A DNA stretch of 64,000 nt, from the IMG/VR virus record IMGVR_UViG_3300032224_000723, positions 64,001-128,000 of that record, one strand, 5' to 3'. The DNA is from a virus. Shown piece by piece: positions 39,833-60,683 of the stretch. Made by a program: the position numbers and the translations under genes. Below the pieces are notes generated by a model, which was not told the origin of the DNA, did no database searches, and saw only the letters and a program-made list of their open reading frames with translations. Position 1 is the stretch's first letter, and each line of letters begins with the position of its first letter.

Positions 39833-40923
39833 TTCCTTTCTTTGGTGTTAATCGCCAATATCAAAACTTACGTGAAGAACTATTAGAAGTAATAGATCAA
39901 GTATACAGTACTGGCCAAGTTCTAGACGGTAATTACACTAAAGAATTTGAAAGGCAAATTGCTGCCAGATGCCATAGACGTTATGCTGTGGCTGTGGGCA
40001 GTTGCACTCAAGCATTGATATTTGCCCAGCAAGTATTGTTCCAAGAACCCACAAAAATTCTAATACCCACTGTTAGTTTTGTTGCCACTATCAACAGTGT
40101 GTTACTAAATGGCAATACTCCTGTGTTTTGTGATGTAGATGATCAAGCACTGATGAATTTAGAAAGCGTGGACTATGCTATCAAAGGATCAGGTGTTGAC
40201 GGTATCATGTATGCTAACTTGTTTGGCAATACTGTGGACTACGATAGGTTTACCATGACTGCGGGATTCTTTAACAGTGATTTAAAAGTAATTGAAGATG
40301 CCGCTCAAAGTTTTGGTGCTAGCTACAAAGGTCAACCCAGTGGCAGTTTAGGTGACGTCAGTGTATTAAGTTTTGATCCCACTAAAAATTTAAACAACTA
40401 CGGATCGGGTGGCATGGTTTTAGTAGATGATTTGCCCACTGCTAAATTGTTGCGTGACTTACGTGACAATGGCAAAGAACTAAATCACGACAATCCTGGT
40501 ACTAACAGTAAGATGAGCGAAGCAGATTGTGCTCAAATGTTGGTTAAGTTAAAACATTTTGATGCTTGGCAGCGGCGCAGAACTGAAATTGCAGAATACT
40601 ATAACGCAGAGCTGTCTAATTACGTAGATACTCCAAAAACTACAACTGGCACGGTACATGCGTGGAGCAAGTATGTGATTAAAACTGCAGATAGATCTGC
40701 CCTTAAAGAACAATTAAGCAAACAAGGCATTGAAACAAAAGTAAACTATCACACACCATTGTATGATCTGCAGGTAGGATATTCTTACATTAACTATGCC
40801 ATGGACTTGTATAGAGAAGCCAGCGCATTTTGTGTTGAGTGTTTGTCATTGCCTATCTATCCCGAGATGACTGACACGGAAGTAGAACGTGTAGTTGATG
40901 CGATTATTTCGTATACCGCTTAA
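39814..40923 (+). CDS. DegT/DnrJ/EryC1/StrS PLP-dependent sugar aminotransferase
   Basis: IEDAAQSFG, SFDPTKNL..GSGG, NSKMSE, LSLPIYP. Confidence 0.92.
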   Translation: MAATNVIPFFGVNRQYQNLREELLEVIDQVYSTGQVLDGNYTKEFERQIAARCHRRYAVAVGSCTQALIFAQQVLFQEPTKILIPTVSFVATINSVLLNGNTPVFCDVDDQALMNLESVDYAIKGSGVDGIMYANLFGNTVDYDRFTMTAGFFNSDLKVIEDAAQSFGASYKGQPSGSLGDVSVLSFDPTKNLNNYGSGGMVLVDDLPTAKLLRDLRDNGKELNHDNPGTNSKMSEADCAQMLVKLKHFDAWQRRRTEIAEYYNAELSNYVDTPKTTTGTVHAWSKYVIKTADRSALKEQLSKQGIETKVNYHTPLYDLQVGYSYINYAMDLYREASAFCVECLSLPIYPEMTDTEVERVVDAIISYTA

Positions 40924-42535
40924 AGTATTCCTGTAGCCAAGCCCATTCAAAAGTTAACATCAACGCATCATAGTCTCCGTTAACTGACTCATAATACTCC
41001 ACAGCATCTGCGGCTCCACGCAAACACCATTCAGCATAATCACCTTGAGCTTTGGTTAACCAAGTCTTAAGTCTATATTCTGTTTCTACATTAGGTTCAG
41101 TAACACTAAAATGTTTTAACTTAACGACTTCACGAAACGCAGTACGCCAAGTCATCCATGCACTTTGATTGAAGTGTGCAATGCCGCTAAGAATAGGCAC
41201 TACTTCATGTGCTTTGCTTAATGTAAAGTCTAATCCACTATCGATAGTTTCTAATACCAATCTCTTGTTATATGCAATCATAGCTTGATGTCCGTAGACT
41301 AATCCATTCACGGGATTCTTAGCATGGAAGATATAGTGTTTGGGTTCTTGGAAATAGTCTGGTTGCCAGTGCCAAGGAAAACTCCCACCCAAGACTTCCA
41401 ATTTGGCAAACACAGTTAAAAACCATGGAGTAGTACTAGCTTCGGCTGCTGCCTTGTAAGCATTAGCACGACCATTGACTCCGCGTATCCACTTAACATC
41501 TCTGTTGCTTTGGTATTCAGTGTTCTCAAACCATTTTTGTTCGTCAGGTTCTCCGTTGCTGATGTAGATAATATCCAGCTCTTTTTCAGTGAAATGTTGC
41601 TGTTCTTGGCTCTTAACGTAGGGATAATCGTATACTTGTGACTGCAAATGTGCCTTAATATCACGGGGTACTACACAGACAGCGTGACTACGTGTAAATG
41701 TCTCTACAGACCTGTCTTTTTCACTCCAAAGACAGGGTTGGTAATAAACAGTTAAATCAGACTGATTGGTAAACAGCGCATACGGGCCAGTAAATTCGAA
41801 TTTTTTAATTTCATCAACTAAGTTATCCGAATCATACTCACAGCGTGGCATGGAATGTCTCTCAACTCGCATGCGGTCACAGTAGTTGATTACATTAAAC
41901 CAATCCAACAACTCTAGTTCTGCCATTTGACGTTTAAATGATTCCACATGAATGTAAAACGTATCTCCACGTTTTTGATTGCCGCTGGGAAACACATGAA
42001 CCATTTCTTCTGTCCACTGGGCAGGATGCCAGGTAAAATCAAATGCCGCATAATCACATAGACTACTAATGATCCATACGTACTCTGTGGCGGCAAGATT
42101 TATTATGCGTTTGAATACGTTTAAGTGACTGTCAACATATCTAGTGGATTTTATATTGGACCAAGATTCTCTAAGTAATGCTAGATCAACTTGGCTTCCA
42201 GTATTCATAAAGTCCATGTAGAATATGTCTGTGGCTTGTGCTCTATTTACAATATCCTGTGCTTCAGTGTGCCAATGCCATTGATGTTCTTTAGTATGTT
42301 TAGGAACAAAATAAGTGCCACCATTATCTTGCCATTGACTGGCCCAAATATGTGTGTGCTCTGCTTCCCACGGCACAGGAACAAAGTCGAAGTCAAAGTC
42401 TGTGTAATCGTTTAAGCCGTTAACAAACCAACAGAACTTAGTGCGGCTCTGTGACTGTGCATCTACTAGGTCTCGAGCTGGACGTTCAAATGCAAATAAG
42501 TTGGGTTTTGGTCCTGTATAGAATACGTCAAACAT
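40904..42535 (-). CDS. Multi-domain glycosyltransferase-like protein (degenerate GT-A repeats)
   Basis: C-terminal domain is paralogous to 56490-57416 (NGLxYG, WRxxFRExxK); two N-terminal DYxxFDFxxxP repeats. Confidence 0.6.
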   Translation of the reverse strand: MFDVFYTGPKPNLFAFERPARDLVDAQSQSRTKFCWFVNGLNDYTDFDFDFVPVPWEAEHTHIWASQWQDNGGTYFVPKHTKEHQWHWHTEAQDIVNRAQATDIFYMDFMNTGSQVDLALLRESWSNIKSTRYVDSHLNVFKRIINLAATEYVWIISSLCDYAAFDFTWHPAQWTEEMVHVFPSGNQKRGDTFYIHVESFKRQMAELELLDWFNVINYCDRMRVERHSMPRCEYDSDNLVDEIKKFEFTGPYALFTNQSDLTVYYQPCLWSEKDRSVETFTRSHAVCVVPRDIKAHLQSQVYDYPYVKSQEQQHFTEKELDIIYISNGEPDEQKWFENTEYQSNRDVKWIRGVNGRANAYKAAAEASTTPWFLTVFAKLEVLGGSFPWHWQPDYFQEPKHYIFHAKNPVNGLVYGHQAMIAYNKRLVLETIDSGLDFTLSKAHEVVPILSGIAHFNQSAWMTWRTAFREVVKLKHFSVTEPNVETEYRLKTWLTKAQGDYAEWCLRGAADAVEYYESVNGDYDALMLTFEWAWLQEYFKRYTK

Positions 42536-42980
42536 CTACTTGTTTTATATCAATGTTGCACTTTTTAAGAAAGTCTACTCCCGCCATGTCCCGATAACTA
42601 TTGCGATAGTATACGCTAGATATACCGCTTTGGTATATAAGTTTGGCACAATCCAAACAAGGAGCGTGAGTAATAAAAATACTAGCATCACTACCGCTTT
42701 GGCTTGATTTGGCCAGCTTTGCAATCGCATTGGATTCAGCATGTAATACCTCTTTTCTTGTTACTAATTCTTCTATCTTTGTTTGGGGGTGTCTAAAGAC
42801 GTATTCACAATTATTATCCCAACCACTGGGCATACCATTATAACCAATGCTAATGATTGTATCATCTTTAACTATAATAGCACCTACATGTAAACGTGTT
42901 GCTGTACTACATTCAGCAAATATCTCCGCTGTTTTCATGTATGCTTTAATGTGTTTTTCTTTTATGACCAATTTGTCCAT
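42528..42980 (-). CDS. dCMP deaminase
   Basis: VGAIIV, GYNG, HAESNA, PCLDC. Confidence 0.9.
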   Translation of the reverse strand: MDKLVIKEKHIKAYMKTAEIFAECSTATRLHVGAIIVKDDTIISIGYNGMPSGWDNNCEYVFRHPQTKIEELVTRKEVLHAESNAIAKLAKSSQSGSDASIFITHAPCLDCAKLIYQSGISSVYYRNSYRDMAGVDFLKKCNIDIKQVDV

Positions 42981-43624
42981 TTATCTGTTAGTTGATGAAA
43001 TTTTGATAGATCTAGGTGTTTATCACCAGGCATATAATTATTAATCATTTCAACAAGTTGGTTTGCTAGTTCTTGATTGTTGTCTATGCTTAAATGATTT
43101 TCCCTAGAGTCATGGAACAAAGCAAATTCTTTAGCATTTATTTCATTTAAACTTATAGATGTCAAACTAGGCCAAACATTAATTCCCGCCAACGCAGATC
43201 TTTGACTCCATGTCCACGGAAAACAATGTAAGTTTACTATCTTTGTGTGTGCCCACCTAACGGTAATTTCTTCAAACCATTTTTTATGTGCCCAATGTAC
43301 AAAATCACTGTCGTGTATATATTTGAAATAAAGTGCGACGGCAAGTTCTATTTCATTATTTTTATTCAATTGAGAATGATTAATCTTACCAATTGTTTTA
43401 TTACTAGTCGGAATTCTGTCAGAGTTAGTATGTGCAAATATCACTGCTTCACAGTTTTCAATATCAGCCTCACTAACTGAATTTAAAAAACATTTTACAG
43501 CCCACCAAGGTTGACCACCGCCGCCATAACAGATTAAATTTAAATTTAATTGTTTAGCTACCATAGTTGGCCAAAATTGATAGTAAGTTGAGAAACTGTC
43601 ACCTAATACAATTAAATTTTTCAT
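42962..43624 (-). CDS. SGNH/GDSL-like protein
   Basis: LGDSF block I; C-terminal NHLS. Confidence 0.65.
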   Translation of the reverse strand: MKNLIVLGDSFSTYYQFWPTMVAKQLNLNLICYGGGGQPWWAVKCFLNSVSEADIENCEAVIFAHTNSDRIPTSNKTIGKINHSQLNKNNEIELAVALYFKYIHDSDFVHWAHKKWFEEITVRWAHTKIVNLHCFPWTWSQRSALAGINVWPSLTSISLNEINAKEFALFHDSRENHLSIDNNQELANQLVEMINNYMPGDKHLDLSKFHQLTDKWTNWS

Positions 43625-45147
43625 TAGCTAACTACCTTTATTCCATATAGAGTTTCAAATCTATCTGCATCTGCGCGGTCGTTGACCATAGGCTCACCGC
43701 GTATATTTAGACTAGTGTTCAACAACATAGGACAGCCAGTCATCACGTACCACTTCTCTAGTAGTTCTCTTATACCGCTACCGTCTTTGGCGACAGTTTG
43801 TACACGACTAGATCCATCAACATGCACAATAGCAGGAAATAAATTAGGTCGTTTACACCAAGCAACGGACTGCATGTAAGGACTAGTTTCCCATCCCTTG
43901 TGCATATCGAAATACTCGTCGGCTAATTCAGCCAATATCACAGGTGCAAAAGGTCTAAACTTTTGTCTACGTTTGATTTCGTTTACACGATCTTTGATAT
44001 CAGGACCACGCGGGTCTGCAAGTAAACTTCTATTGCCTAGCGCCCGCGGACCAAATTCTGCACGTCCACTCGCCACACCAACAATGCCAGTAGTGACGAG
44101 ATGGTCAAGGGCATCATTAACAGGATACCCACCAGGGATGTCATGACCCAAAAAAGCAGTAGTCCAATTAATACGCTGACCGTAAGCAAGGGCCGCGGCG
44201 CCAAGGCTACTGCCAGCATCACCAGGATTAGGCATAATCCATATATTATCATAATAATCTCCTAAGTTTCTATTTGCTAAACAATTTAGGGCAACACCGC
44301 CCATGTAAACAAGATTTGTACTCCAGTCAAAACTTTTGGACCGGCGTATAACATTATATATCAACTTTTCCACAATCTCTTGTGCGGCCCATGCCCAAGC
44401 TTCATTATCTATTCTCCAATTACTTGTAATTCCCGTGTGTAAATTATCTCTGAAAATAATTTCTTGGTCATCTTTGATATAAACTCTACTCAATATGTCT
44501 GGTAGTAACTCTGTAGTTTTTCCATATGCAGCCATACCCATAAGTATGTATTCTTCTTCGTTGGGTTTTAGGCCCACTTCTTTGGTTATTGCACTATAAA
44601 ATAATCCAATGCTGTGTGGATATTTTTGTCCCCACAATTTTTTATACTTTGCCTGTCCTTTTTTATTGTACTCTGCGCCCCAAATACTTATAGTATCCCA
44701 TTCGCCAATAGCATCGATGACAACTACTGTAGCACGATTGAACGGACTTGTTTGAAAGCCTGCGGATGCATGACTTAGATGATGATTATAACTACTAGTT
44801 GATATATTAGTTAAAGGTCGAATCTCATCAGTTACTTGTTTATTTTTTAATTCCGTATACCAACTACCAAGTTGTTTTCGTAAAGATTGTTCTACGGTCA
44901 ATGACTGCCACTGGATACCTTCGCCACTGTATAACCTACGTAGTTGTTTAGCCCATGGGCGTTCGTAGTATGCAATTTCATTAATATCAAATTTAGAAAT
45001 TTCTTCAATAAGTCCAGCACTGATATTGGCGTCATTCTTTACTTTGCTATAACGTTCGCTATGGCCAGCAAAAAGTATATCGCCATGGCGATTTATAACT
45101 GTAGCGGCTGCATCGTGAAATCCAGCCGAAATTCCTAATATATTCAT
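43624..45147 (-). CDS. Carbamoyltransferase (NodU/CmcH/TobZ family)
   Basis: HDAAA, ERYSK, HHLSHA, DAIGE, GGVALN, GDAG, EFGPRALGNRS, FRPFAP, NTSLN. Confidence 0.95.
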   Translation of the reverse strand: MNILGISAGFHDAAATVINRHGDILFAGHSERYSKVKNDANISAGLIEEISKFDINEIAYYERPWAKQLRRLYSGEGIQWQSLTVEQSLRKQLGSWYTELKNKQVTDEIRPLTNISTSSYNHHLSHASAGFQTSPFNRATVVVIDAIGEWDTISIWGAEYNKKGQAKYKKLWGQKYPHSIGLFYSAITKEVGLKPNEEEYILMGMAAYGKTTELLPDILSRVYIKDDQEIIFRDNLHTGITSNWRIDNEAWAWAAQEIVEKLIYNVIRRSKSFDWSTNLVYMGGVALNCLANRNLGDYYDNIWIMPNPGDAGSSLGAAALAYGQRINWTTAFLGHDIPGGYPVNDALDHLVTTGIVGVASGRAEFGPRALGNRSLLADPRGPDIKDRVNEIKRRQKFRPFAPVILAELADEYFDMHKGWETSPYMQSVAWCKRPNLFPAIVHVDGSSRVQTVAKDGSGIRELLEKWYVMTGCPMLLNTSLNIRGEPMVNDRADADRFETLYGIKVVS

Positions 45148-45245
45148 TTATAGATAAATGGATCTCGTTTACGTAGTTCTTTTAGTTTTTTACGATATCG
45201 AATTTCTAATCGAATTCTGTTCCAAATGTTTCTTAACCAGTTCAT
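45144..45245 (-). CDS. Small basic peptide upstream of the carbamoyltransferase (33 aa, not in ORF track)
   Basis: MNWLRNIWNRIRLEIRYRKKLKELRKRDPFIYK; GAAGGA SD; ATGA-coupled. Confidence 0.7.
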   Translation of the reverse strand: MNWLRNIWNRIRLEIRYRKKLKELRKRDPFIYK

Positions 45246-45250
45246 TGATT

Positions 45251-46378
45251 TTATCCTTCAGTAATATTTATAGTGCTACTGTAGTCATACCCCGGTTTCA
45301 TCATATCAATCTGCATTTGTTTGTATCCAGAATCAGCCCAACTATAATTAAACGTATTTGACACACCGTTAACTTCAATTTTATAGATGTCTAAGTGTGA
45401 ACCTAATATGTTCCATATAGTTTGATAGTCTTCAGTACCAAAACTCTCTTTTAACATAACTTGGCCAATTGGCAAATATCCTAAACTTAACTTAGGATCC
45501 ATTGGATCTCTTCCGTTGTCAATTAACCAATCATGAAATCTTTGTTGTTCTGTATTGTGCCAAGGCACTGGGCCACCGAGCTTAACATCGTTGCCCCATT
45601 CAACATCAAATTCCCCGCTATAATATTTTAGTTCAGTTATGGCTTCACATACTGTGTCTGTTAATTCTGGTGCACCTTCATCTCTAAAAACTTCAAATAG
45701 TGTTTTACCTATTTGTGTCCAATGCATATATACACCGCCTATTACACGATCATATCCATTTTGTAAAAATAACTGTCTATGATTATCTGTTAAATCAAAT
45801 CTAGGACTATTAATAAATGTTGTAATTTGACTGGGTCGTACCCAATAAGGAACTGTGGTTAATTTACGTTGGCTCAGTATTAAATTTTCTATTTCGTGAC
45901 AAATGTTATTCAATTGTCGTATTGCATATTTTGTTTCGTAGTCAGCACGACGATAGTAATCACTTAGATTCCAAACTGTGCCTTGCAACTGTTCAAAATG
46001 ATTGTGTAGTTTGTTCAACAATTCATGATTTGGTCCCAATGTACCCACATTAAATCCTTCTGTGGCTGTGTCAGGTGCTAATAAATTGTCGGGCTGTATA
46101 TCCAAATCAATTTGATAATCTGGAAAATAGTTATTGATTGTAACTACATGCATTTGCAATTCTGTGCATAGGTATTCTAAACTACGGGAAGTTTTTGGAA
46201 AACCCATAAAGCAAAAATTCTTTTCTAATAAATTATTAGACTGCAACAAACCTTTAAGTGCATGTGTCCAATCCCTTGCTAGTTCATTGTCTGCAGGTTG
46301 AATTACATAATCAATTTGATCGTTATAATTTAATGGATTACGTAGTACTACTTTAATTGATTGATTGCCACCACTCAT
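45251..46378 (-). CDS. Hypothetical protein (paralog of 49219-50028)
   Basis: LHNHFE, LNNICHEIE, GKTLFEVF, LGYLPIGQV. Confidence 0.75.
   Translation of the reverse strand: MSGGNQSIKVVLRNPLNYNDQIDYVIQPADNELARDWTHALKGLLQSNNLLEKNFCFMGFPKTSRSLEYLCTELQMHVVTINNYFPDYQIDLDIQPDNLLAPDTATEGFNVGTLGPNHELLNKLHNHFEQLQGTVWNLSDYYRRADYETKYAIRQLNNICHEIENLILSQRKLTTVPYWVRPSQITTFINSPRFDLTDNHRQLFLQNGYDRVIGGVYMHWTQIGKTLFEVFRDEGAPELTDTVCEAITELKYYSGEFDVEWGNDVKLGGPVPWHNTEQQRFHDWLIDNGRDPMDPKLSLGYLPIGQVMLKESFGTEDYQTIWNILGSHLDIYKIEVNGVSNTFNYSWADSGYKQMQIDMMKPGYDYSSTINITEG
45265..45272 (-). promoter_or_regulatory. T4 late-type promoter TATAAATA
   Basis: Exact TATAAATA on the - strand ~20 nt upstream of ATG 45245. Confidence 0.6.
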
Positions 46379-47651
46379 ATACGTCCGGTCTTTGTTTTAG
46401 TATGTCCGCCATGGTATAAGTATCACCGCGGATCTTCTCTAATTGTAACACACGGGCTTTACCTTTTGCAAGACCTTTGGCATATTCATCAGGCCAAGAT
46501 TCAGCGAAAGTGGGTCTGGTTTTTAGCTGAACTAAGATATCCTGTAGGGCGTTGCCAGAAATCTTTAACTGGTCAATCATTTCGTCTACCCAAGGATGTA
46601 ATAGTTCCCGGGGTAGTGCTAACGGTGACATAACTATGTCCGGTGTAAAACTAAACACCACTTTTGCTAAAACATCTACATCTAACTCTTGTGCGAGTCT
46701 CCCAATATGTGCAACCTCGAACATTCCGGGCAAAGTGAGCGTAAAGTCAATTCGGACTTGACGACTGTGACGTCTGATTTTAAGTCCCTCACGGAAGTTT
46801 TCAAGCCACGTAGTATAGTCAAGGCCTGTTCTAATATATTCACCGATTGCGCCTGTTCCGTCGAGGCTTGCACATATCTGCCAATCCCGAAGCCTGCTAA
46901 GAATATCATTGTAAAGATTGATACCTTTATAATTAACCCTAGAAAGGTTAGTGTTGTATCGAGCATAAACATTTGGTCCGTCTCCCAATTCTATTATCCG
47001 TTTCATATAACGCCAATGTTGTTCGTACATTAAAGGTTCACCACCAACCCAATATACTTCTTCAACACGGTGTTCTTCGACGGCTTGACTAAACTCTGCC
47101 TCAATTTGTGTATCTTGAAACTGTTCAATCTGTTTTTTGATATCAGGCTGCATCCAATTATTCTTTGGATTATGCCAATTGATCATGTTGTGTTGGCGTT
47201 GCTCGCTTTCCCAAGCACTGCTTAACATGTCACCGCACATACGACATTTGAAATTACATAAGTTACTAAACCTATAATCCCAACTCACAGGCTTCATTGT
47301 AGTATAACCTGTAGTGTCTGTACTTGCGACTACTTCATTGTACTTATTCCCAAATAAACTATCAAAATAACTGCGGTAAACGGCAGTGTTTAAAAGTTTG
47401 TCATTACATACTTCACATTCAGGCAAAGTTTCACCTGCCATCATACGCCTACGCACAGACTTCATGTGTTCACTGTTCCAATGTTCGTCTAATGTGATAG
47501 GTATATATTTGCCAGTGCCAGCACTTGTGTCAATATACTGCTGAAAGTTTTGTGCAGGCTCTCTACTGGCGCAACACATTCTACGCTCAGTTTGTGGACT
47601 TAGATATGTATGGGTCCAAGGGGCCAAACATAGTGTATTAGGTTTTGTCAT
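46353..47651 (-). CDS. Radical SAM protein with N-terminal auxiliary Cys domain
   Basis: CLAPW..CC..CEVC; CNFKCRMC; GGEP. Confidence 0.9.
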   Translation of the reverse strand: MTKPNTLCLAPWTHTYLSPQTERRMCCASREPAQNFQQYIDTSAGTGKYIPITLDEHWNSEHMKSVRRRMMAGETLPECEVCNDKLLNTAVYRSYFDSLFGNKYNEVVASTDTTGYTTMKPVSWDYRFSNLCNFKCRMCGDMLSSAWESEQRQHNMINWHNPKNNWMQPDIKKQIEQFQDTQIEAEFSQAVEEHRVEEVYWVGGEPLMYEQHWRYMKRIIELGDGPNVYARYNTNLSRVNYKGINLYNDILSRLRDWQICASLDGTGAIGEYIRTGLDYTTWLENFREGLKIRRHSRQVRIDFTLTLPGMFEVAHIGRLAQELDVDVLAKVVFSFTPDIVMSPLALPRELLHPWVDEMIDQLKISGNALQDILVQLKTRPTFAESWPDEYAKGLAKGKARVLQLEKIRGDTYTMADILKQRPDVYEWWQSIN

Positions 47652-48156
47652 TGATCCAATTTATGTAAAGTGATTTTCGAATTATACCTGCAGGAACACT
47701 ACCAACCATTCCGTGAAATATTTTGTCGCTGTTTAACAATATTAATCCGGTGTTTTTCTTATAAGGAATTTTGAAACGGACACCTTCTTCATATTCTGTG
47801 CCGATTTCTAATTCCTCATCCCCTAAATAAATTATCATTACATTCTGTACACTTGGGGCATCATAATGAAAAGGATTAATATATCCTGGATGATCTCTCC
47901 ATAATTCCATTCCCCTAATCCTCGGTTTTTCAGTAACTGTGTGTATTATAAAAGATATCGAATCAAGTATACGATGGCGTAGGTCAGTGTTGTCACGAAT
48001 AAAACATACTTCTCTAGGATTATCACCGTTTGGTTGGCTTGGTCGAATCTGGTTACGAAAAAATGTATTACATCTATCAACTATGTCAGTTAATAGCACA
48101 GGATCAAATACATTTGATAATGCAAAGCCATTAGTTGATAAATTATTAATTTCCAT
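47638..48156 (-). CDS. 2OG-Fe(II) oxygenase-like protein
   Basis: HYD (HxD), IYL, GT, FHGM, RKSLY. Confidence 0.7.
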   Translation of the reverse strand: MEINNLSTNGFALSNVFDPVLLTDIVDRCNTFFRNQIRPSQPNGDNPREVCFIRDNTDLRHRILDSISFIIHTVTEKPRIRGMELWRDHPGYINPFHYDAPSVQNVMIIYLGDEELEIGTEYEEGVRFKIPYKKNTGLILLNSDKIFHGMVGSVPAGIIRKSLYINWINDKT

Positions 48157-48160
48157 TTGC

Positions 48161-51244: not shown

Positions 51245-52574
51245 AATCTTTTAATGGTTGTAGTTCTGTAAAAGTTGTCCAAAAGTCTTCATTACGTATT
51301 CTGTCTAAGTCTGCCACTTCTTTTTTAAATTTTGACCAGTGATATATTTGACTTTGATCGTTCATTAAGTTTAGTATGCTTTTAAATCCATTGGTAGCAC
51401 GTTTTAACGTATCCTGTGGTTCCAGCCAAGCAATGTGCTGTTCATATGCAGGCGTAATTGTTTGTTGTTTAAACCAGTCTGGGAATATATCTACCCTATA
51501 CCAATCAGGACTTTGACATATATTTACATTAAAGTCTTTGGCGTGAATCAATCCTTGTTCAGTCCATGCTTTATGGAAATCCAGCACATGAAGTACATTC
51601 ATCGCACTGATAGTTGCGCTGACATAAAAATCCACATGCGGTACTTGTTCCATCATACGACGTCGATTGTCTAGTGTTTGTGACCAATCTGTGCCTTTAC
51701 GTATTAATTCTGCACGTGGCCCCATGGCATCTAAACTAGCGCCTACACTTACATTTTTAAAATGTTTCCAATACTCAAATACGTGTTTGTCTTTAAATCT
51801 CAATTCACTGAAGTTTGTGTTATACTGTATGCGAACATCTGTTTTACCTGCTTCGATTAACTTCTCTAATAAGAAATAATGTTCCTTCATAATAAGAGGT
51901 TCGCCGCCTGCAAAATACACTTGTTCAAGATATGGTATATGCGGCATCATTTGTTCAATCATTGAATCTTCGTCGCCTGCTGTGTATTCTACACGGGCCA
52001 TGTCCCTGCCTAATACATCAGGTTTACGATCGTAGAGTTTAACATGGTCGTTGTACCAGTTACTGCTAAAGATAGGACCACAACTACGGCAACTAAAATT
52101 ACATAAGTTGCTAAATCTCACGTCCCAATATCTAATTTTAAAGTCTGGGTGTGTTCCATCAGGTTGTGTGTTATCCACTTCTTTGATATGATGACCGTAA
52201 TTACGATTACTATCGTATCGCATACTAAACGCACCATGTTGTTCCTGCTCATAGCACTTGTTACATTCTTTACAAGGTTTATCCTCAAGCATGTTTTGTC
52301 GCATTAAACGGTATGGCTCTTGATTCCATACTTGTTCCATAGTACTTTTACGTAAGTCACCTACAGGATGCCAGTAATCACTTAAACAGCACGGGTATGC
52401 ACGACCATCTGGAAAAGCATGCATGTGCATCCATGGTAACATACAAAACGATTTACTCTCGGTTAGTCGTTTCCATTGTGTATCTGTTAAATCGGACTTA
52501 TCAGCAAAATAAGGAGCACGTTGATTATAGTCGTAGCCCTTATTGTAAAAACCTTTTACGTCTTTATCTGTCAT
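51231..52574 (-). CDS. Radical SAM protein with N-terminal auxiliary Cys domain
   Basis: CMLPW..PCC..CNKC; CNFSCRSC; GGEP. Confidence 0.9.
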   Translation of the reverse strand: MTDKDVKGFYNKGYDYNQRAPYFADKSDLTDTQWKRLTESKSFCMLPWMHMHAFPDGRAYPCCLSDYWHPVGDLRKSTMEQVWNQEPYRLMRQNMLEDKPCKECNKCYEQEQHGAFSMRYDSNRNYGHHIKEVDNTQPDGTHPDFKIRYWDVRFSNLCNFSCRSCGPIFSSNWYNDHVKLYDRKPDVLGRDMARVEYTAGDEDSMIEQMMPHIPYLEQVYFAGGEPLIMKEHYFLLEKLIEAGKTDVRIQYNTNFSELRFKDKHVFEYWKHFKNVSVGASLDAMGPRAELIRKGTDWSQTLDNRRRMMEQVPHVDFYVSATISAMNVLHVLDFHKAWTEQGLIHAKDFNVNICQSPDWYRVDIFPDWFKQQTITPAYEQHIAWLEPQDTLKRATNGFKSILNLMNDQSQIYHWSKFKKEVADLDRIRNEDFWTTFTELQPLKDYDPT

Positions 52575-53950
52575 AATGTATTGTACCAGTTTGCGAGCGC
52601 AGGAAATGTTTCTGTAAAGTTTTTACCACGACGTTGATCATATTGCATGTAGAAGTTTTTAAAGTCACGTTGTAGCACAATTTGCGACATTGCTTCTTTG
52701 TGTGCTTCACTGACTTCACGAATATAGTCCAACAATCTTGTTAATTGATTCCATTCGTACTCATGCATTTCTGAGCCGTGCCTATAACTGTCAGCAAAGT
52801 CATTCAATTTGTTGTAATACATTGATCGGATATCTTCAGGAAATACAGTCAGTGATTGAAAACTAGGAAAGCGTAATATATTTAATGAAAAATTAATTGC
52901 ATCTTTTCCGTATTCACGTTTCCAATTCATAACCATTTCTAGGAAACTGTCCAGACTATCGAGACACAAAGCATTAATGGTACACATGACATGAAGCCCG
53001 CAAAATTTTCCGCTGTCCAGTAATCGTTCTACATTGTTGGCCCAGTCGTCGAATACAAGCCCGTCTCGAATATATTCTGCTTGTAGACTCATTGATTCGT
53101 TACTGGTGTACAAATCAACTTCAACACCATCAACTGCTGCCAACAATCTATCAATATCTACGTCTGTGCCTAGATTACTGTTAATGGCTAGTCGCGTCGT
53201 CGACTTGCCTTTATTGTTCTTAAACCACTCAATGAGGTTCCACGTGTGGGCGGACATGAGAGGTTCACCTCCTGTGATTCTAAGTTCTTTAAGGGTTCTA
53301 TGGAGGTCTGATTCCCACCATTTGAAGAATGCTTCCACATACGGATTAGTCTCACTGAATTTATAAAGTTGACTGCTATCATGAGTGTGAGTAAAATGGT
53401 TCCTACCGTCACTAACCAATCCTGTGTAGGATCCATTTTTTCTGATGTCATTAACCCAGGTACTACTAAATGCAGGGTTACAATAAGAACAAGCGAACTG
53501 GCAAGTGCGGTCAAAAGCAATTTCAAGAGTTTGAAGGTCGATGTCTGTCGTGGGGTCTGATTTGAATGCATGGTCTAAGTCCTCATCTGAATATATTACT
53601 GTTTTGTATACACGATCGCTAATAGGCACTGGCACATCTACACCAGTATATTTTGGATCTTTGTACATATCTTCAATCTTCCAGCAGTATTCACAACCAC
53701 TGGGACGTTCTCCTGCTTGCATTTGACTACGTTCAAATTTCTTTTTAGTAGTGTTATGCAGAGACTTGGGATTAAATTTAATTGCTTCAACATCAACTGC
53801 ATGTGGCAATGGATGATGGCAACTGGTTGTTTGCCCGCTGCCTAACCATATAGTGGCATTGTACCATTTTGCTCCGCAGAAACTTGCCGACTTAATGTCA
53901 ATGACTCTGCGTTTGTATTCTAAATCTGTTTCGTTGGGTAACCTAGCCAT
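52571..53950 (-). CDS. Radical SAM protein with N-terminal auxiliary Cys domain
   Basis: CGAKW..CHHP..CEYC; CQFACSYC; GGEP. Confidence 0.9.
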   Translation of the reverse strand: MARLPNETDLEYKRRVIDIKSASFCGAKWYNATIWLGSGQTTSCHHPLPHAVDVEAIKFNPKSLHNTTKKKFERSQMQAGERPSGCEYCWKIEDMYKDPKYTGVDVPVPISDRVYKTVIYSDEDLDHAFKSDPTTDIDLQTLEIAFDRTCQFACSYCNPAFSSTWVNDIRKNGSYTGLVSDGRNHFTHTHDSSQLYKFSETNPYVEAFFKWWESDLHRTLKELRITGGEPLMSAHTWNLIEWFKNNKGKSTTRLAINSNLGTDVDIDRLLAAVDGVEVDLYTSNESMSLQAEYIRDGLVFDDWANNVERLLDSGKFCGLHVMCTINALCLDSLDSFLEMVMNWKREYGKDAINFSLNILRFPSFQSLTVFPEDIRSMYYNKLNDFADSYRHGSEMHEYEWNQLTRLLDYIREVSEAHKEAMSQIVLQRDFKNFYMQYDQRRGKNFTETFPALANWYNTL

Positions 53951-55118
53951 TCACATGCTCCGACAATTTTGATAATGTTGTTTTCCAATTAATGTTTCTT
54001 AGCGAATCTATTTTTGTTAAATAATCTCTCCAGTCGTCACCACTTGTTATTCTTGCAGTTTCTAATTTAGAAATAATAGAATTTTTAATGTAAGCATAGT
54101 CATCCGAGATTGTTTGTAGATGATCTATAGCAGGTTGTTTTAATTCTTGGTCAATTGACTCTAAAGATAAAACATTCCCTCCGTAACTTTGGTCGCCCGC
54201 AAATGTTATGTATATCTCAATTGGATCTGTATTAGGTAATTCTGAGAAATGCGTGTTTTTCCAATCAATTATATCTTTTATATAAAACATATTAACCTTA
54301 CTAACTGTTACCCCTAATTGTAACCACATATTAGGAATCACCGAGTTTAAATTTCTAATGTTAAACATATTTTCTTGTACTTGAGACCATTTTGCCGGAT
54401 ATCTAATATATTCAAATTGATTACCTATTGCATCTATACTAAAATATATTTTTACTAATTTCGTTTTCTGCCATAGTTCTACGGCTTCATCTGTAGGAAA
54501 TACTGTGCCATTTGTATTATAACTCACCGTCACTTTACTTAGGTCACAACCTTGATGTTCCATCTCTTTTAAAACATTGACATGATCGTCTGTTAATAAC
54601 GGTTCACCTCCTTGAAAATGCAGTAGTTGAATTTTATTCAATGGCAAAGACTTGTATATTAAATTACCATTTCCAGACACTTTTACTTCACCACCTGTTA
54701 TAGGATATCCCAGTTTTTTATAATCAGGCTTCCATAACGAACTGTATCTAGGGCCGCAAGTAACACATTTTAAATTACAAACATTTTCACAATTATAAGA
54801 AAGACTTATTAATTCAACAGTATCATCTATGGTTATTTTATTTTGTTCAAATACCTTTTGTTGTCCTATTCTGTAGCTTTGTGTATTATGTTTTTCATGT
54901 ATTAAACATCTATTACATTCTGGCACAGTTTCAATTGAATTTCTTACATAATTTAAATAATCATTGTTATAGAAATCCACTACATCATAGGCATTATTAC
55001 TGAATACTTGATCACAACACATAGCAACAAGCGCAGATTGTTTATCAACTTTTTCAATATACAGACCTTTTTTATATAAAGGACAATCAATTTTTGTTTC
55101 GTTATGTTGTTTTAGCAT
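53943..55118 (-). CDS. Radical SAM protein with N-terminal auxiliary Cys domain
   Basis: CP..CC..CNRC; CNLKCVTC; GGEP; start refined to 55118. Confidence 0.88.
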   Translation of the reverse strand: MLKQHNETKIDCPLYKKGLYIEKVDKQSALVAMCCDQVFSNNAYDVVDFYNNDYLNYVRNSIETVPECNRCLIHEKHNTQSYRIGQQKVFEQNKITIDDTVELISLSYNCENVCNLKCVTCGPRYSSLWKPDYKKLGYPITGGEVKVSGNGNLIYKSLPLNKIQLLHFQGGEPLLTDDHVNVLKEMEHQGCDLSKVTVSYNTNGTVFPTDEAVELWQKTKLVKIYFSIDAIGNQFEYIRYPAKWSQVQENMFNIRNLNSVIPNMWLQLGVTVSKVNMFYIKDIIDWKNTHFSELPNTDPIEIYITFAGDQSYGGNVLSLESIDQELKQPAIDHLQTISDDYAYIKNSIISKLETARITSGDDWRDYLTKIDSLRNINWKTTLSKLSEHVNG

Positions 55119-56496
55119 GATACTCACATTCTTTCCAAAAATCAATCATCTCTGGAAAGGTTCTTATAAAGCCAGTTCCCCTGCGCTTATCGTGTTCATT
55201 AAAGAACTTATAGAAATTAGCTTTTTGCATTTTAACATACTCTGGGTCCAAATTGCAACCTTCACGCATATAATCAATCACACGTTGTAGGCGTTGTGGT
55301 TCATAATCTTTAAATCCTTTAAAAGGCTTGTCTTCTGTTTCCAATTTACTAACCATAAACGCCCATGTTTCTTCTAATCGATCCACATAACTTTCAGGTA
55401 ACAACTGAACACTTTGCCATTCTGGATTACGAAGTATGGGAGTATCAAACCAAACACGTTGATATGTTTTGCTGTATATTTGTCTAAGTCCATGTATGCA
55501 ATTAATCAAATCGTGAAAACCTGTGACGTTCAAATTGTTCATGGTAATGATAAACGTCAAACTACTTCTATTAGGTACTTCATTTAAGAAACGATTAACA
55601 TTTTCCCAAAGACGTTCAAAGTTTAAACCGTCTCTTGCATATTCTGCTTTAAAGAATGTAGCATCTACACTAACATACTGCATAAAATGTTCCAAGTACT
55701 TAGGTTCGTTTGTGGTCAATTTTTTTACACAATCTAAATATTTTTCAAACAACTCAGGCTCAACACTAAAATTGCTAGTAACGTTTAGATGTAACTTAGG
55801 ACTAGGATTGGCCAATACATAATCAAATACACGATATGTATTTTTATCCATCAACGGTTCTCCGCCTGTCATCCTAAAATGTTCTAAGTTAGGATATAAT
55901 GTAGGCCACCATTCCCAAAATGCTTCTACATAGGGATTATACTCACGGGCAGGTATGAGGCGCCTGCGGCCAACAAAATGATCAGGAGCATTGTGAGGCA
56001 CCAAAGTAGGATATGCACCAAGTCTAGCAACTTCATCGGCCCATGAGCTGCTAAACTGTGGACTGCAATAGCTACACCGCAGATTGCAAGCGTGATTGAA
56101 ATTAACTTCAACATAACTAGGAATAACATTGTCTTCGAGTCCTGTACTATTTTTTATATTTTCAAAATCCACTGCGGCCCAAGGCTCACCGCTACGATAG
56201 TGACGGTCGCTTAGGTTACCTAAATCTTCTTGTGTCCAACAATAATTACATTCTTGTGGACGTTCGTTTTTTAACATCAACACACGTTGCTGTTTCTTAT
56301 GCTCAGTGTTATGTAAGGCTGCAGGAGTTAGTTTAATTGCATCAGCGTCAATTTGATGTAATGGAGGATGATAGCAACTGTTGTTTAGTCCTGTGGGTAA
56401 GTGTAGGCTTACCTGTTTCCATTTAGCCAAGCAAAGCGCGGGACCCAACTTAGATTTAGCATCTTCTGCGTCTGTTAGAAATACGCTTTTTACCAT
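55102..56496 (-). CDS. Radical SAM protein (paralog of 52571-53950)
   Basis: CLAKW..CYHP..CNYC; CNLRCSYC; GGEP. Confidence 0.9.
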   Translation of the reverse strand: MVKSVFLTDAEDAKSKLGPALCLAKWKQVSLHLPTGLNNSCYHPPLHQIDADAIKLTPAALHNTEHKKQQRVLMLKNERPQECNYCWTQEDLGNLSDRHYRSGEPWAAVDFENIKNSTGLEDNVIPSYVEVNFNHACNLRCSYCSPQFSSSWADEVARLGAYPTLVPHNAPDHFVGRRRLIPAREYNPYVEAFWEWWPTLYPNLEHFRMTGGEPLMDKNTYRVFDYVLANPSPKLHLNVTSNFSVEPELFEKYLDCVKKLTTNEPKYLEHFMQYVSVDATFFKAEYARDGLNFERLWENVNRFLNEVPNRSSLTFIITMNNLNVTGFHDLINCIHGLRQIYSKTYQRVWFDTPILRNPEWQSVQLLPESYVDRLEETWAFMVSKLETEDKPFKGFKDYEPQRLQRVIDYMREGCNLDPEYVKMQKANFYKFFNEHDKRRGTGFIRTFPEMIDFWKECEYHAKTT

Positions 56497-57416
56497 CCTT
56501 CAGCCTTACGAATAATTTCCATTTCTGACACTGTGGTGCCTAAATTCTTCTGTACTTTACTATAGTGATGTTTAAAGAAACGACTTTGCTCCGCTGTCAT
56601 ATCTACTATGGGCAATGCTAGCCTTTGTTGTAATGTTTGTCCTAAACTTACACAAGCAGATTCAGTGTCTCGTTGGAATGAACTCCATAATGATGCCAAT
56701 TGATCAAAGTCTTGCACTAATCGATAATCCCATTCACGTAGCATTGTAAGATATGTCCCTAGCCTTGCGCCATATATGGCCCAGAATCCGTTGTCAACAT
56801 CCATGCCTACACTTTGCCATATACACAAGTGATCGTAGTTTCTAGCATGTACTTTTTGTTCAAATTCTTGCAGGCTAGGTTTCTTGCCTCGGTCCAAGCA
56901 CATCTTAACACCTTCGCGGAATCCTGCTCTCCATGCCTGAAAGGGTGTGGCATTGGGATAAGTTGTGCTGTAACAATCATGCATAGGAACGTATAATGGA
57001 TCAAAGCAAAACTCAACCACAGTTTCATCTCTACCATCTGTGTTTTCATGTGTACGCATGTTGTTAACAAAGTCTTTGGTCCAGCAACTAAGTCCACCGT
57101 TGCCGTACATTAATCCATTAATGTGGTTACGTGCTTTCCAACGGAACACACAATCTTTGTTATTGTCATTTAATTTTAATTGTAGATTAAAAAACTCAGG
57201 GTCAGGTATGTTGTCACCATCAATTAATACAAACCTATCTGTGTCACTGGCTGCTGCCGCGGCTTTGTGTGCGGCATCACTGCCTTTAACACCATCTACA
57301 CGTTTGGCCCATGGAACCATATTTTGAATCTTAATCCAAAATTCTTCCTTTTTAGGTTCGTCATAAGTTAAAAATATGCAGTCAAGATCTGCAATGTCAA
57401 TTAGTTCTTCTGTCAT
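56490..57416 (-). CDS. GT-A fold glycosyltransferase-like protein
   Basis: FLTYDEP, AAHKAAA, FVLIDGD (DxD), NGLMYG, WRAGFREG. Confidence 0.7.
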   Translation of the reverse strand: MTEELIDIADLDCIFLTYDEPKKEEFWIKIQNMVPWAKRVDGVKGSDAAHKAAAAASDTDRFVLIDGDNIPDPEFFNLQLKLNDNNKDCVFRWKARNHINGLMYGNGGLSCWTKDFVNNMRTHENTDGRDETVVEFCFDPLYVPMHDCYSTTYPNATPFQAWRAGFREGVKMCLDRGKKPSLQEFEQKVHARNYDHLCIWQSVGMDVDNGFWAIYGARLGTYLTMLREWDYRLVQDFDQLASLWSSFQRDTESACVSLGQTLQQRLALPIVDMTAEQSRFFKHHYSKVQKNLGTTVSEMEIIRKAEGW

Positions 57417-57750
57417 AATATTCTATATCTGGATATGTTTCATTTTCTTCGAGTAGCAATGCCGCATTATTTTTAACAACTCGGTAACCTTTATTACTTT
57501 TAATTAGACGTGAAACAAGTCCGTTATTTTGTACAATTTTTTCTAATACACCATTAACTACATGATACCTATAGTACATATCATATGTTTCTTTATCGAC
57601 CACAACATATTGGGTCGATTCTGGATGTTGTACCATAGTACACAAATAAATGTCACCCAATTCATTATAATGAAGACGATACTCTATGGGTTCATCCTCT
57701 GTTACAATCATTGAATTGAGTGCTTTAAGTAATTCCGATTCGCTGTTCAT
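57397..57750 (-). CDS. Hypothetical protein
   Basis: Overlapping ORF within the operon. Confidence 0.7.
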   Translation of the reverse strand: MNSESELLKALNSMIVTEDEPIEYRLHYNELGDIYLCTMVQHPESTQYVVVDKETYDMYYRYHVVNGVLEKIVQNNGLVSRLIKSNKGYRVVKNNAALLLEENETYPDIEYYDRRTN

Positions 57751-58585
57751 AGTATTTAATTATTTCATCTGTGGCAAAATTTTTATCAAAATAATGCACT
57801 GGGTAGTATTGATTTAAATTGTTAACCCTAATAATATCACCGTCAAATTCCCCAATAACTGAATCAGCCCATGATCTATTTTCATCCAGCCCGTTTATGC
57901 TAGATTTCATATGTACAAAATTGATAAAATCTGCACTGGGAATCGTGCAATGTTCTCTGCCAATGACTTCAGTGACTATTGCGTACAATACATCAGTGCT
58001 GGGTTTATCTTCTCTACAGTTCTTTAAAATTTGATCTTTTATTTCTAGCCAATTCAATGTTAATTGTTTTGCAAGCACAAAAAAATCTACCGCTGTTTTA
58101 CTATATCTAAAGTACATTAATCCATTGTAGACATCAGGTAAATTGTTGTCATCAAACAACTGCCTATATGTTCTAACATTGGACATTTTTCCAAGATAAT
58201 TTTTACAGCCCGTACTTAGTACAATATCTTTTAATCTAAATGTATTCCACCAATGATCAATACTTCTACCAAACAACAAATCACTTTCCAACTTAATTGT
58301 TTCTTTAAAAGGTGTTAACCAAAATACCTGCCATTCATTCGATAACTTCCAGTTGCTGTCCGGATCATTATAATCATCAGTTAGTTCTATCACATAGTCA
58401 AACACTTGCCTATGTTGATCTGTTACTAGTTGTGCTGTTGATTTGTCTACGATAACTGCATACTCGGCTGAAGGTTGTGTTGATTTTATGTTCATTGCCT
58501 GCAGGTATGCAAGTTTGAGATAGTCCACAGATTCTGTGTTTTGTGCAAAGGTTACAAAACCTCGTTGTGATTTATGCTGACTCAT
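57725..58585 (-). CDS. GT-A glycosyltransferase-like protein (GT8-like)
   Basis: TPFKETIKLESD, NGLMYF, TDVLYA, FVHMK. Confidence 0.65.
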   Translation of the reverse strand: MSQHKSQRGFVTFAQNTESVDYLKLAYLQAMNIKSTQPSAEYAVIVDKSTAQLVTDQHRQVFDYVIELTDDYNDPDSNWKLSNEWQVFWLTPFKETIKLESDLLFGRSIDHWWNTFRLKDIVLSTGCKNYLGKMSNVRTYRQLFDDNNLPDVYNGLMYFRYSKTAVDFFVLAKQLTLNWLEIKDQILKNCREDKPSTDVLYAIVTEVIGREHCTIPSADFINFVHMKSSINGLDENRSWADSVIGEFDGDIIRVNNLNQYYPVHYFDKNFATDEIIKYYEQRIGIT

Positions 58586-59396
58586 TACAAAACCCATCAA
58601 CAAAATATTCAAAGTCTCTGCTAGATAAAAACTTTTTATCCATTATGTGTATGTTTTGTTTAGCAACTACATCTGCAGATTCTTTATGTCTTAGGATAAT
58701 AAAATTATTTTTAATTTCAATTGATTCAATCCCTTGATCGACGGTGAGCATGGACCATGGGATACCCCTATGCTCGTTTAGATCATATCCATTTAAAATT
58801 AAATTGGCCATAGCAAATGCATGATCATTTCTATATGACCCCACACAATTAAATAATATAGAGTAATAAAGATAATTCTGTTGAATTCTACCAATTAAAT
58901 CAAAGTATTGTTTAGATAGTTCAGATTTGTTAAACAGAACCACAGTCGCCCATACAAAGGGTAGACCTAGTGTACCCATGATTTGATACATTTCTTCTTT
59001 TGGTCTATGACTATTGTGCATTAATCTGTAATCAAATTGTTGATCCAATAGATTTAATAAAGAATTATCCAGTACCAAATAGTCGCAGTCAAGTAAGATA
59101 GTAGTGTCGTATGGACTTAGCTCATATGCAAGGTACCTATCAAAATTACGCCACTCAACTAGTTCTCCACTGGAGCTGTTTCTAAGATTCCCTGTTTGAC
59201 TATCAACTTTAATCACACGGTCATAATTAAATTTTGGGTCTGCGTTGATATCTGTTATTAATGTTATTGGCAGTTTTAAATTAGCATCAATTAGTCTACT
59301 AGATTGATCTGCTATCTTTACATAATTTACTGTTGTCGAGTTAAATGCAAATACAACTACACCTTTAGATTTTTCTAATTCTTTTGAGTTCGTCAT
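58572..59396 (-). CDS. GT-A glycosyltransferase-like protein
   Basis: SPYDTTILLDCD (DxD), WATVVLF, RNDHAF, HIMDK. Confidence 0.7.
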   Translation of the reverse strand: MTNSKELEKSKGVVVFAFNSTTVNYVKIADQSSRLIDANLKLPITLITDINADPKFNYDRVIKVDSQTGNLRNSSSGELVEWRNFDRYLAYELSPYDTTILLDCDYLVLDNSLLNLLDQQFDYRLMHNSHRPKEEMYQIMGTLGLPFVWATVVLFNKSELSKQYFDLIGRIQQNYLYYSILFNCVGSYRNDHAFAMANLILNGYDLNEHRGIPWSMLTVDQGIESIEIKNNFIILRHKESADVVAKQNIHIMDKKFLSSRDFEYFVDGFCNESA

Positions 59397-59682
59397 GTTG
59401 TTGATGCCAAGTGTTCATAACTTTTTGATAATGCTGTTGGGCTGTTACTAAAAATATTTGCCGATCGATTTCTATGGGATTCTGATAAACATCTTCAAGA
59501 TATAATATATCTAATGGCCATGTTGCAACAAAGGCCAATAGTTCTGGAGAAATTTTGAAAAGACCATTGTTGTATGGTAAATGCAGATCTGTTTGTATTT
59601 TTTCTCTGAGCAATCTTTTATTTGATTGGTAATCAGTTGCTTGCTTGACTTGAGCCACTAAGTTTTTTAGATCAGTATTCAT
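59365..59682 (-). CDS. Hypothetical protein
   Basis: First gene of the coupled - strand block. Confidence 0.7.
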   Translation of the reverse strand: MNTDLKNLVAQVKQATDYQSNKRLLREKIQTDLHLPYNNGLFKISPELLAFVATWPLDILYLEDVYQNPIEIDRQIFLVTAQQHYQKVMNTWHQQHDELKRIRKI

Positions 59683-59688
59683 AGACAA

Positions 59689-59717
59689 ATAATAACATCT
59701 AATAGATCAAAAGTCAA
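59689..59717 (-). promoter_or_regulatory. Sigma70 promoter heading the glycosyltransferase/radical SAM block
   Basis: TTGACT-17-TATTAT (TGtTATTAT) on the - strand; ATG 6 nt downstream. Confidence 0.65.
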
Positions 59718-60674: not shown

Positions 60675-60683
60675 TTGGCCCCT

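Follow-up and report, generated by a model that had tools for sequence, protein, structure and literature searches.

A conserved radical SAM array beside the tail-fibre genes of environmental giant phages, with a possible role in glycan assembly and tailoring

A block of minus-strand genes in an environmental giant phage holds a conserved core of three GT-A-like proteins (u274, u295 and u308; candidate glycosyltransferases, GTs), five deeply diverged paralogues of radical S-adenosylmethionine (SAM) enzymes with an N-terminal twitch domain, the conserved protein u375 and a carbamoyltransferase, together with variable slots for further tailoring genes. The block lies in the 64,000-nt stretch analysed here (the window), i.e. 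bases 64001–128000 of a 156,993-bp IMG/VR record (IMGVR_UViG_3300032224_000723; CheckV completeness 45%). It belongs to a nearly gap-free minus-strand run, whose co-orientation was noted in a first-pass annotation made from the sequence; the run spans 40904–63851, and most of its junctions overlap by 1–44 nt. We read the block as a phage-encoded, fully soluble island for glycan assembly and radical tailoring, an interpretation to which we give an even chance. The observations of the first-pass annotation are partly confirmed and largely right, and its interpretation, a heavily decorated glycan built by the phage, is partly supported.

The conserved core and the small proteins that accompany it are listed in the order of the minus strand, with window coordinates:

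59365–59688, minus strand: u107, conserved small protein and first gene of the block, kept in relatives; no family match
58572–59396, minus strand: u274, putative glycosyltransferase resembling GT8/Nucleotid_trans (ESM Atlas)
57725–58612, minus strand: u295, paralogue of u274 (hhalign; phrog_1903 at 1.5e-5)
57397–57750, minus strand: u117, small protein in most relatives' loci
56490–57416, minus strand: u308, predicted GT-A-fold protein with a C-terminal helical domain (AF2, Foldseek, VIA)
55102–56496, minus strand: rS464, core N-terminal-twitch radical SAM protein (NF033640, 311.7 bits; median orthologue identity 68%)
52571–53950, minus strand: rS459, core N-terminal-twitch radical SAM protein (267.8 bits; median identity 68%)
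51231–52574, minus strand: rS447, core N-terminal-twitch radical SAM protein, the copy nearest to bacterial ones (402 bits; 7,356 close homologues)
50021–51244, minus strand: rS407, core N-terminal-twitch radical SAM protein (353.5 bits; median identity 68%)
46353–47651, minus strand: rS432, core N-terminal-twitch radical SAM protein (290.9 bits; median identity 77%)
45251–46378, minus strand: u375, conserved protein present in 42 of 46 loci
43624–45147, minus strand: NodU/CmcH/TobZ-type carbamoyltransferase (Carbam_trans_N and Carbam_trans_C; phrog_1601 at 1.5e-95)

The radical SAM proteins form a permuted relative of BtrN

All seven radical SAM proteins that had been called between 46353 and 56496 match Pfam Radical_SAM, and four of them show a SPASM-type match N-terminal to the core. 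Six pass the curated cut-off (170 bits) of NF033640, the NCBIfam model 'twitch domain-containing radical SAM protein', at 203–402 bits, and the seventh, rS353, fails at 54 bits. Ten proteins exceed this cut-off in the whole record. Two N-terminal-twitch copies, one full (25542–26750, plus strand) and one weak (1948–3105, plus strand; 41 bits), lie far from the block amid replication and nucleotide genes.

In NF033640 proteins, the twitch domain with its auxiliary Fe-S cluster sits before the radical SAM core. Across 64 phage and bacterial sequences, the cysteines of the CxxxCxxC motif (C158, C162, C165) as well as C44, C104 and C107 are invariant and C62 nearly so; all four N-terminal cysteines are invariant in a 23-sequence alignment of the domain. 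When a profile of this domain (87 residues; 23 sequences from phages and bacteria) was searched against the entire PDB, BtrN was the sole match (E 1.6e-8); the four invariant cysteines align with four in the twitch domain of BtrN. As the twitch comes first and the core second, this homology makes the family a permuted relative of BtrN at the domain level.

BtrN (PDB 4M7T/4M7S) is the twitch radical SAM enzyme that acts as 2-deoxy-scyllo-inosamine dehydrogenase in butirosin biosynthesis. Its auxiliary [4Fe-4S] cluster is held by four cysteine ligands, and its reaction is the two-electron oxidation of a secondary alcohol on an aminocyclitol (PMC9012708). The phage enzymes thus share with BtrN a homologous auxiliary domain and the cysteines of a fully ligated cluster; furthermore, BtrN acts beside a pyridoxal-phosphate aminotransferase, and a DegT aminotransferase faces the phage block. 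In contrast to BtrN, a compact protein of ~250 aa with a C-terminal twitch, they carry the twitch at the N-terminus, measure 400–464 aa and possess an extra helical C-terminal domain; the BtrN core is not among the matches of their core domain, and no cyclitol pathway accompanies them.

The AlphaFold2 (AF2) model of rS447 (pLDDT 92.7) shows this helical addition of ~100 aa. The solved structures nearest to its core are BlsE (Z 12.4) and DesII (Z 12.2), followed by SkfB, CteB, SuiB and anSME (Z 11.3–11.9) and, slightly lower, MoaA (10.9–11.3) and viperin (9.5–11.2), while the best PDB sequence matches of the core are peptide maturases. Four conserved cysteines lie outside the SAM motif, compared with the at least seven, for two auxiliary clusters, of a full SPASM domain. 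Pfam and NCBIfam gave no match to an RRE/PqqD-type domain; small open reading frames (ORFs) that might encode precursor peptides were not searched systematically. A literature search found no publication on the function of the NF033640 N-terminal-twitch family.

Conservation across viral relatives

A search of IMG/VR with rS447 returned 46 loci and one with u308 at least 584 matching stretches, 80 of which were fetched, for a total of 126 loci. The recurrent gene order is u207, tf519, u312, u107, u274, u295, (u117), u308, rS464, rS459, rS447, rS407, rS432, u375 and carbamoyltransferase, with an optional distal part consisting of a dCMP deaminase, u543 and a facing DegT gene. Synteny with the fibre genes, to which the first-pass annotation had tied the block, is kept in these 126 loci and in the cultured Ralstonia phage RsoM2USA, even in distant relatives at 30–50% identity. 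DegT faces the array in five of five relatives tested.

Orthologues of the five core radical SAM proteins are 68–77% identical across phages and paralogues 18–27%, and the copies must therefore be old and non-redundant, each under its own constraint. (A FastTree phylogeny of the paralogues was coarse, had long branches and contained a few rows with wrong labels; it served only to show that they are deep.) The variable slots, filled in the window by rS400, rS353, u172, u269 and u220, amount to 343 ORFs in 87 families over the 126 loci. Pfam assignments, made for one representative per family, include 14 further radical SAM proteins, sugar epimerases, an APS kinase with Stf0 sulfotransferase, hexapeptide acyltransferases, class-III and DegT aminotransferases, an AMP-binding enzyme and a B12-binding domain. 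Three genomes of at least 92% completeness encode 10, 11 and 17 NF033640 genes above the cut-off; the seventeen, in a 320-kb genome (G003, IMGVR_UViG_3300031857_000002), are scattered genome-wide.

Megablast of the radical SAM array against cultured phages gave no DNA-level match. RsoM2USA, however, carries a minimal module (ORF348–358) downstream of its baseplate genes and of genes whose structural products have been verified by mass spectrometry (MS), comprising an epimerase, u274-, u295- and u308-like proteins, a single rS464-like radical SAM protein (ORF349, 34% identical to rS464) and a second u308-like protein. The neighbourhood in Vibrio phage K566 was uninformative, and the 'moraphage' of PMC12619734 was discarded as a candidate for the same lineage because that paper treats a different one.

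Bacterial homologues and fusion proteins

A scan of 185,579 species genomes yielded 78 loci, about ten of which belong to the same phage lineage binned into metagenome-assembled genomes (MAGs). The remaining, cellular loci come mostly from Bacteroidota and Bdellovibrionota, some on contigs of 0.5–4 Mb. Among 109 neighbours at 20 bacterial loci, the commonest Pfam families are radical SAM and SPASM (21 and 13), PhyH dioxygenases (12), carbamoyltransferase (4), ABC ATPase (4), GDSL (3), GT4 and GT2. Neighbour clustering revealed a recurrent locus with up to three GT4 genes, an NAD epimerase, UDP-glucose dehydrogenase, GT2 and a 404-aa ABC ATPase, as well as up to six tandem PhyH genes, a WelO5-like oxygenase and a carbamoyltransferase adjoining the radical SAM gene; carbamoyltransferase homologues adjoin N-terminal-twitch radical SAM genes in 10 bacterial loci. 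Judged by this gene content, the bacterial loci of the family are glycan loci. Their overlap with the phage block is confined to radical SAM proteins, carbamoyltransferase, epimerase and DegT. When every phage protein without assignment was aligned to the bacterial neighbour families by hhalign, a single weak pair emerged, u308 with an unnamed 259-aa family (55%).

The family comprises 1,422 clusters at 50% identity (E ≤ 1e-30) in a library of 1.84 billion proteins. Some members are fused to other domains, namely GT2 (P0207), TPR (P0248, P0156) or ankyrin repeats (P0244). Five others (P0121, P0122, P0124, P0126 and P0127; 790–1,106 aa) have two matched stretches and look like tandem fusions of two N-terminal-twitch radical SAM proteins.

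Two side observations concern these cellular and MAG-derived sequences. Bacteroidota glycan loci such as L066, L067, L060 and L101, in which up to six tandem PhyH genes and a WelO5-like oxygenase accompany N-terminal-twitch radical SAM genes and a carbamoyltransferase, appear to constitute a separate, uncharacterised and heavily oxidative glycan-tailoring system. Contigs assigned to bacterial MAGs (L053 and L054, of 183 and 148 kb, from Haliscomenobacter MAGs, and L047, L049–L051, L107 and L109) hold the full module of fibre, GT-like and radical SAM genes; they are all but certainly phage sequences that ended up in bacterial bins, and this binning may hint at a host.

Glycosyltransferase-like proteins

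No GT-like protein of the block has a sequence match in Pfam, NCBIfam or PDB, and PDB profile searches with u308 and u274 gave nothing useful. The three GT-A-like proteins of the first-pass annotation stand as weak fold assignments rather than firm ones. The AlphaFold model of u308, for which 14 orthologues were used (pLDDT 78), adopts a GT-A/nucleotidyltransferase fold over residues 4–156; its best Foldseek row is PBCV-1 A64R (E 0.026, probability 0.89), and all 50 of 50 VIA rows are GT-A proteins or nucleotidyltransferases (Z 5.7–7.2), which makes the assignment suggestive, not firm. For u274, the nearest named ESM Atlas clusters are PF03407/PF01501 (Nucleotid_trans/GT8; 0.95–0.96), and u295 joins as its paralogue (hhalign 97.5–97.8%, E 5e-12). 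Residues expected of a DxD motif are invariant in both u308 (D66-G-D68) and u274 (D103, D105).

A64R is a viral capsid-glycan transferase, and its place at the head of the u308 fold search suggests, at the level of a model, a virion acceptor. Like A64R and its partners in chlorovirus PBCV-1, the phage block encodes soluble, virus-borne glycosyltransferases (here putative) beside structural genes, and glycosylation of mycobacteriophage capsids and tails was reportedly described by Freeman in 2023. Unlike the PBCV-1 and mycobacteriophage systems, which are not known to include radical SAM enzymes, the present block combines them with transferases too diverged for Pfam, and it is known from its genes alone.

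Accessory genes and the facing operon

The accessory, distal and facing genes are as follows:

53943–55145, minus strand: rS400, accessory (variable-slot) N-terminal-twitch radical SAM protein (NF033640, 203 bits; paralogue-level matches only in relatives)
49219–50028, minus strand: u269, accessory gene in one or two relatives only
48161–49222, minus strand: rS353, accessory, shorter and divergent radical SAM protein with an N-terminal SPASM-like region (Pfam Radical_SAM and SPASM)
47638–48156, minus strand: u172, accessory gene; no library or hhalign match
42962–43624, minus strand: u220, accessory gene (sequence; GDS motif only)
42528–42980, minus strand: dCMP/cytidine deaminase (Pfam dCMP_cyt_deam_1 at 1.9e-20; same place in relatives)
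40904–42535, minus strand: u543, C-terminal half homologous to the GT-A-like domain of u308 (hhalign 99%)
37099–40923, plus strand: convergent sub-operon of overlapping genes for an N-terminal-twitch radical SAM protein (503 aa), an 84-aa ORF, a short-chain dehydrogenase/reductase (SDR)-type sugar 4,6-dehydratase/epimerase and a DegT 4-aminotransferase

As annotated before, the carbamoyltransferase has both Pfam domains above their cut-offs (119 and 163 bits), and the SDR sugar dehydratase/epimerase and DegT aminotransferase genes converge on the block from the plus strand. The nearest NCBIfam models for these two are dTDP-glucose 4,6-dehydratase and 4-amino-4,6-dideoxy-sugar transaminases, respectively, both below the equivalog cut-offs. 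Three features had been missing from the first list: the dCMP deaminase gene within the run, which probably belongs to ordinary nucleotide metabolism; an eighth N-terminal-twitch radical SAM gene (37099–38610, plus strand) downstream of a canonical ThyA gene; and a promoter-like site at the upstream edge of the block.

Other enzyme calls were not confirmed. The 'multi-GT-like' protein u543 contains one u308-like domain only, in which the DxD position is not kept, and its N-terminal 300 aa lie outside that domain. Neither the call of u172 as a 2-oxoglutarate-Fe(II) oxygenase nor that of u220 as an SGNH protein found support in Pfam, NCBIfam, PHROGs, PDB or hhalign; in targeted hhalign comparisons, u172 did not align as PhyH or WelO5-like, nor u220 as GDSL. 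Where the first-pass annotation had listed two paralogous unknowns, clear paralogue pairs are limited to u274/u295 and, just outside the block, u312a/u312b. Pfam, NCBIfam and PHROGs returned no match for u543, u220, u375, u172, u269, u308, u117, u274 or u107, and for u375 neither ESM Atlas nor hhalign provided a lead either.

Upstream virion genes and the transcription boundary

The position of the block directly downstream of tail and baseplate genes was confirmed. On the same strand, genes upstream of it encode a gp5-like hub/lysozyme, gp25- and gp6-like wedge proteins, a 4,465-aa virion protein and two fibre-like proteins, a set that identifies the phage as a giant myovirus with a T4-type baseplate. 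Its near-complete relatives measure 320–357 kb, and a family-B DNA polymerase is among the PHROG matches. The 4,465-aa protein, a match to a PHROG virion structural protein, is encoded by a single minus-strand ORF (L125:2500-15897 = G000:C1:129500-142897) that has the gp6-like wedge gene on one side and the fibre-like genes on the other; its RsoM2USA counterpart (2,541 aa) was found in virions by MS. Next to the block lie:

61636–63195, minus strand: tf519, tail-fibre-like protein with a C-terminal chaperone-type domain and possible acceptor (PHROG tail fiber and virion structural; Pfam Peptidase_G2/IMC, E 2e-4)
59736–61622, minus strand: u312b and u312a, paralogous fibre-like pair, Ser/Thr-rich (24–27%) and possible acceptors (sequence, composition)
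59689–59717, minus strand: sigma-70-like promoter (TTGACT, 17 nt, TATTAT, with TG) in the gap between u312a and u107

Among the 80 loci anchored on u308, tf519 is found upstream of the block in 60 and u312a/u312b in 77. The u312 pair has no family match, and u312a no match among cultured phages.

The first-pass annotation had spoken of a coupled block behind the tail-fibre genes. In transcription, the block is not coupled to those genes, as the promoter-like site of the window and, in relatives, a hairpin followed by a T-run lie between the two. Of the u312a–u107 gaps of 106 relatives, 62% contain hairpin and T-run, compared with 1.2% at background, and 23% contain a strict promoter match, compared with 0.6%, so the enzymes form a transcription unit of their own. 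The function of the sigma-70-like site in this particular phage is uncertain, as it lies only 6 nt from the first ATG. In relatives (L001–L046, L128–L207; e.g. L015:3946-4026, L001:4015-4095), the gap 5′ of the u107 orthologue contains a composite element, TTGACx-N17-TATAAT, whose spacer and –10 box fall within a stem-loop, with a T-run behind it. Judged by its motifs, this single stretch seems to terminate transcription of the fibre genes and initiate that of the enzyme genes, and the enzyme unit is probably read by unmodified host polymerase.

General scans for promoters and terminators stayed at background. A T4-type late promoter (TATAAATA, window 45265–45272), 125 nt 5′ of the carbamoyltransferase start codon, was dropped, being kept in none of 39 relatives. 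This motif is depleted in the window (one copy vs. 6.7 expected); in the record, three of its five copies lie 14–26 nt upstream of a start codon, a position as in T4-type late promoters.

Proposed pathway and alternative explanations

In the reading we favour, host nucleotide-sugars and the products of the phage dehydratase/epimerase and DegT enzymes would feed the GT-A-like transferases, which would assemble a short glycan on a cytoplasmic acceptor. Each radical SAM enzyme would remove a hydrogen atom at one specific carbon of a sugar and pass an electron to its four-cysteine auxiliary cluster in the manner of BtrN; the resulting keto-sugars could then be aminated, epimerised or deoxygenated, and the carbamoyltransferase together with accessory sulfo-, acyl- and aminotransferases would complete the decoration. 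The most likely acceptor, and at the same time the least supported step, would be the fibre proteins encoded just upstream. Sugar building and decoration as such are supported by the bacterial glycan loci, the GT2–radical SAM fusion, the sugar-tailoring accessory genes and the coupling of a radical SAM gene to dehydratase/epimerase and DegT genes in one operon. A cytoplasmic acceptor fits with the block encoding no protein with a hydrophobic segment of transmembrane grade and with no flippase, polymerase or transporter being seen. For the acceptor itself, virion fibres are no more than our leading guess.

Several observations weigh against this reading. No experiment and no characterised family member ties these radical SAM enzymes to a sugar substrate, nor does structure reveal the substrate class, since the sugar-acting (BlsE, DesII) and peptide-acting (SkfB, CteB, SuiB, anSME) neighbours of the core are tied. 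The GT-A calls are weakly supported, resting on Z scores of 6–7 and E values of about 0.03 without a Pfam match, and the members fused to TPR or ankyrin repeats point to protein partners. Moreover, about half of the NF033640 genes in the three near-complete genomes are located outside the array, and half or more of the N-terminal-twitch copies in these genomes are far from the fibre genes. Adjacency to the fibre genes may mark only a plastic region, and the terminator/promoter boundary divides the two units.

The protein partners lead to one alternative, in which the radical SAM enzymes act directly on virion or host proteins in the style of maturases of ribosomally synthesised and post-translationally modified peptides or of anSME (cross-links, epimerisation, oxidation) and the GT-like proteins are secondary. 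The fibre genes next door and the peptide maturases that head the PDB sequence matches of the core would suit such a role; the lack of any Pfam or NCBIfam match to an RRE/PqqD-type domain, the single four-cysteine cluster in place of a full SPASM domain, a twitch domain that matches BtrN and no peptide maturase, and bacterial neighbourhoods of the glycan rather than the peptide type make it unlikely in our view. We hold it to be similarly improbable that the enzymes remodel host envelope polysaccharide or lipid-linked precursors via the host carrier lipid and export, to block superinfection or keep progeny from sticking to debris. The bacterial homologues do reside in glycan loci of the ABC-transporter type, and the sigma-70-like promoter suggests expression before the late genes, yet neither a priming transferase nor a flippase, a polymerase or any other membrane protein is encoded in the block, its GT-A-like proteins lack counterparts in the bacterial loci, and the conserved place beside the fibre genes would be left unexplained.

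A diffusible small molecule, aminoglycoside- or nucleoside-like and acting on host or competitors, would account for a gene set that mirrors aminoglycoside pathways (BtrN-like radical SAM enzyme, DegT, TobZ-type carbamoyltransferase and, in the bacterial loci, dioxygenases). No cyclitol synthase or exporter was seen, however, the GT-A-like proteins are phage-specific and the linkage to structural genes recurs in more than 120 loci, so we regard this product as quite unlikely. Least probable of all, and in our estimate very much so, is hypermodification of phage DNA or nucleotides with sugars. In its favour, the dCMP deaminase, ThyA and DHFR genes are adjacent, the window has a QueE-like gene at another place, and phage glycosyltransferases are known to decorate DNA (Pyle 2024, as cited in PMC12619734). 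DNA, which the first-pass annotation had included among the possible targets, is nevertheless disfavoured: ThyA passes the equivalog cut-off of thymidylate synthase; a single ThyA-family gene is present in the record and in three relatives, none in two further relatives, near-complete genomes among them; no hydroxymethylase was found; and the deaminase is an ordinary T4-type nucleotide gene.

The most specific form of our favoured reading is that the phages of a widespread giant clade attach a hypermodified glycan to their own tail fibres, with its sugars rewritten by a fixed series of five permuted BtrN-like radical SAM enzymes and by strain-specific extras; we advance it tentatively, as a proposal with a good deal less than an even chance of being correct.

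Implications

To our knowledge, radical SAM chemistry on glycans is confined to a few antibiotic pathways. Nishimura et al. 2017 (PMC5332604) described a T4-like marine viral genome with 12 radical SAM genes, which resembles the present phage in being a large T4-like aquatic phage rich in such genes. There, they were treated as clients of Fe-S cluster assembly only, with no family, array, context or function given; the array had been noticed earlier only in passing. While NF033640 at large has no assigned function, the phages studied here carry 10–17 copies per genome and a fixed five-gene array.

In hundreds of giant phages from the environment, members of an uncharacterised radical SAM family make up a conserved array of five enzymes. 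If the substrate were identified, the family as a whole would acquire a function; new kinds of sugar modification might come to light, and the benefit that giant phages draw from devoting ~20 kb to the island would become apparent. RsoM2USA, being cultured and having a version with one radical SAM gene, makes the question directly testable. If the proposal of fibre decoration is true, it would represent the first radical-SAM-dependent virion glycosylation and the first function for the N-terminal-twitch radical SAM family, which would then tailor bacterial surface glycans, too.

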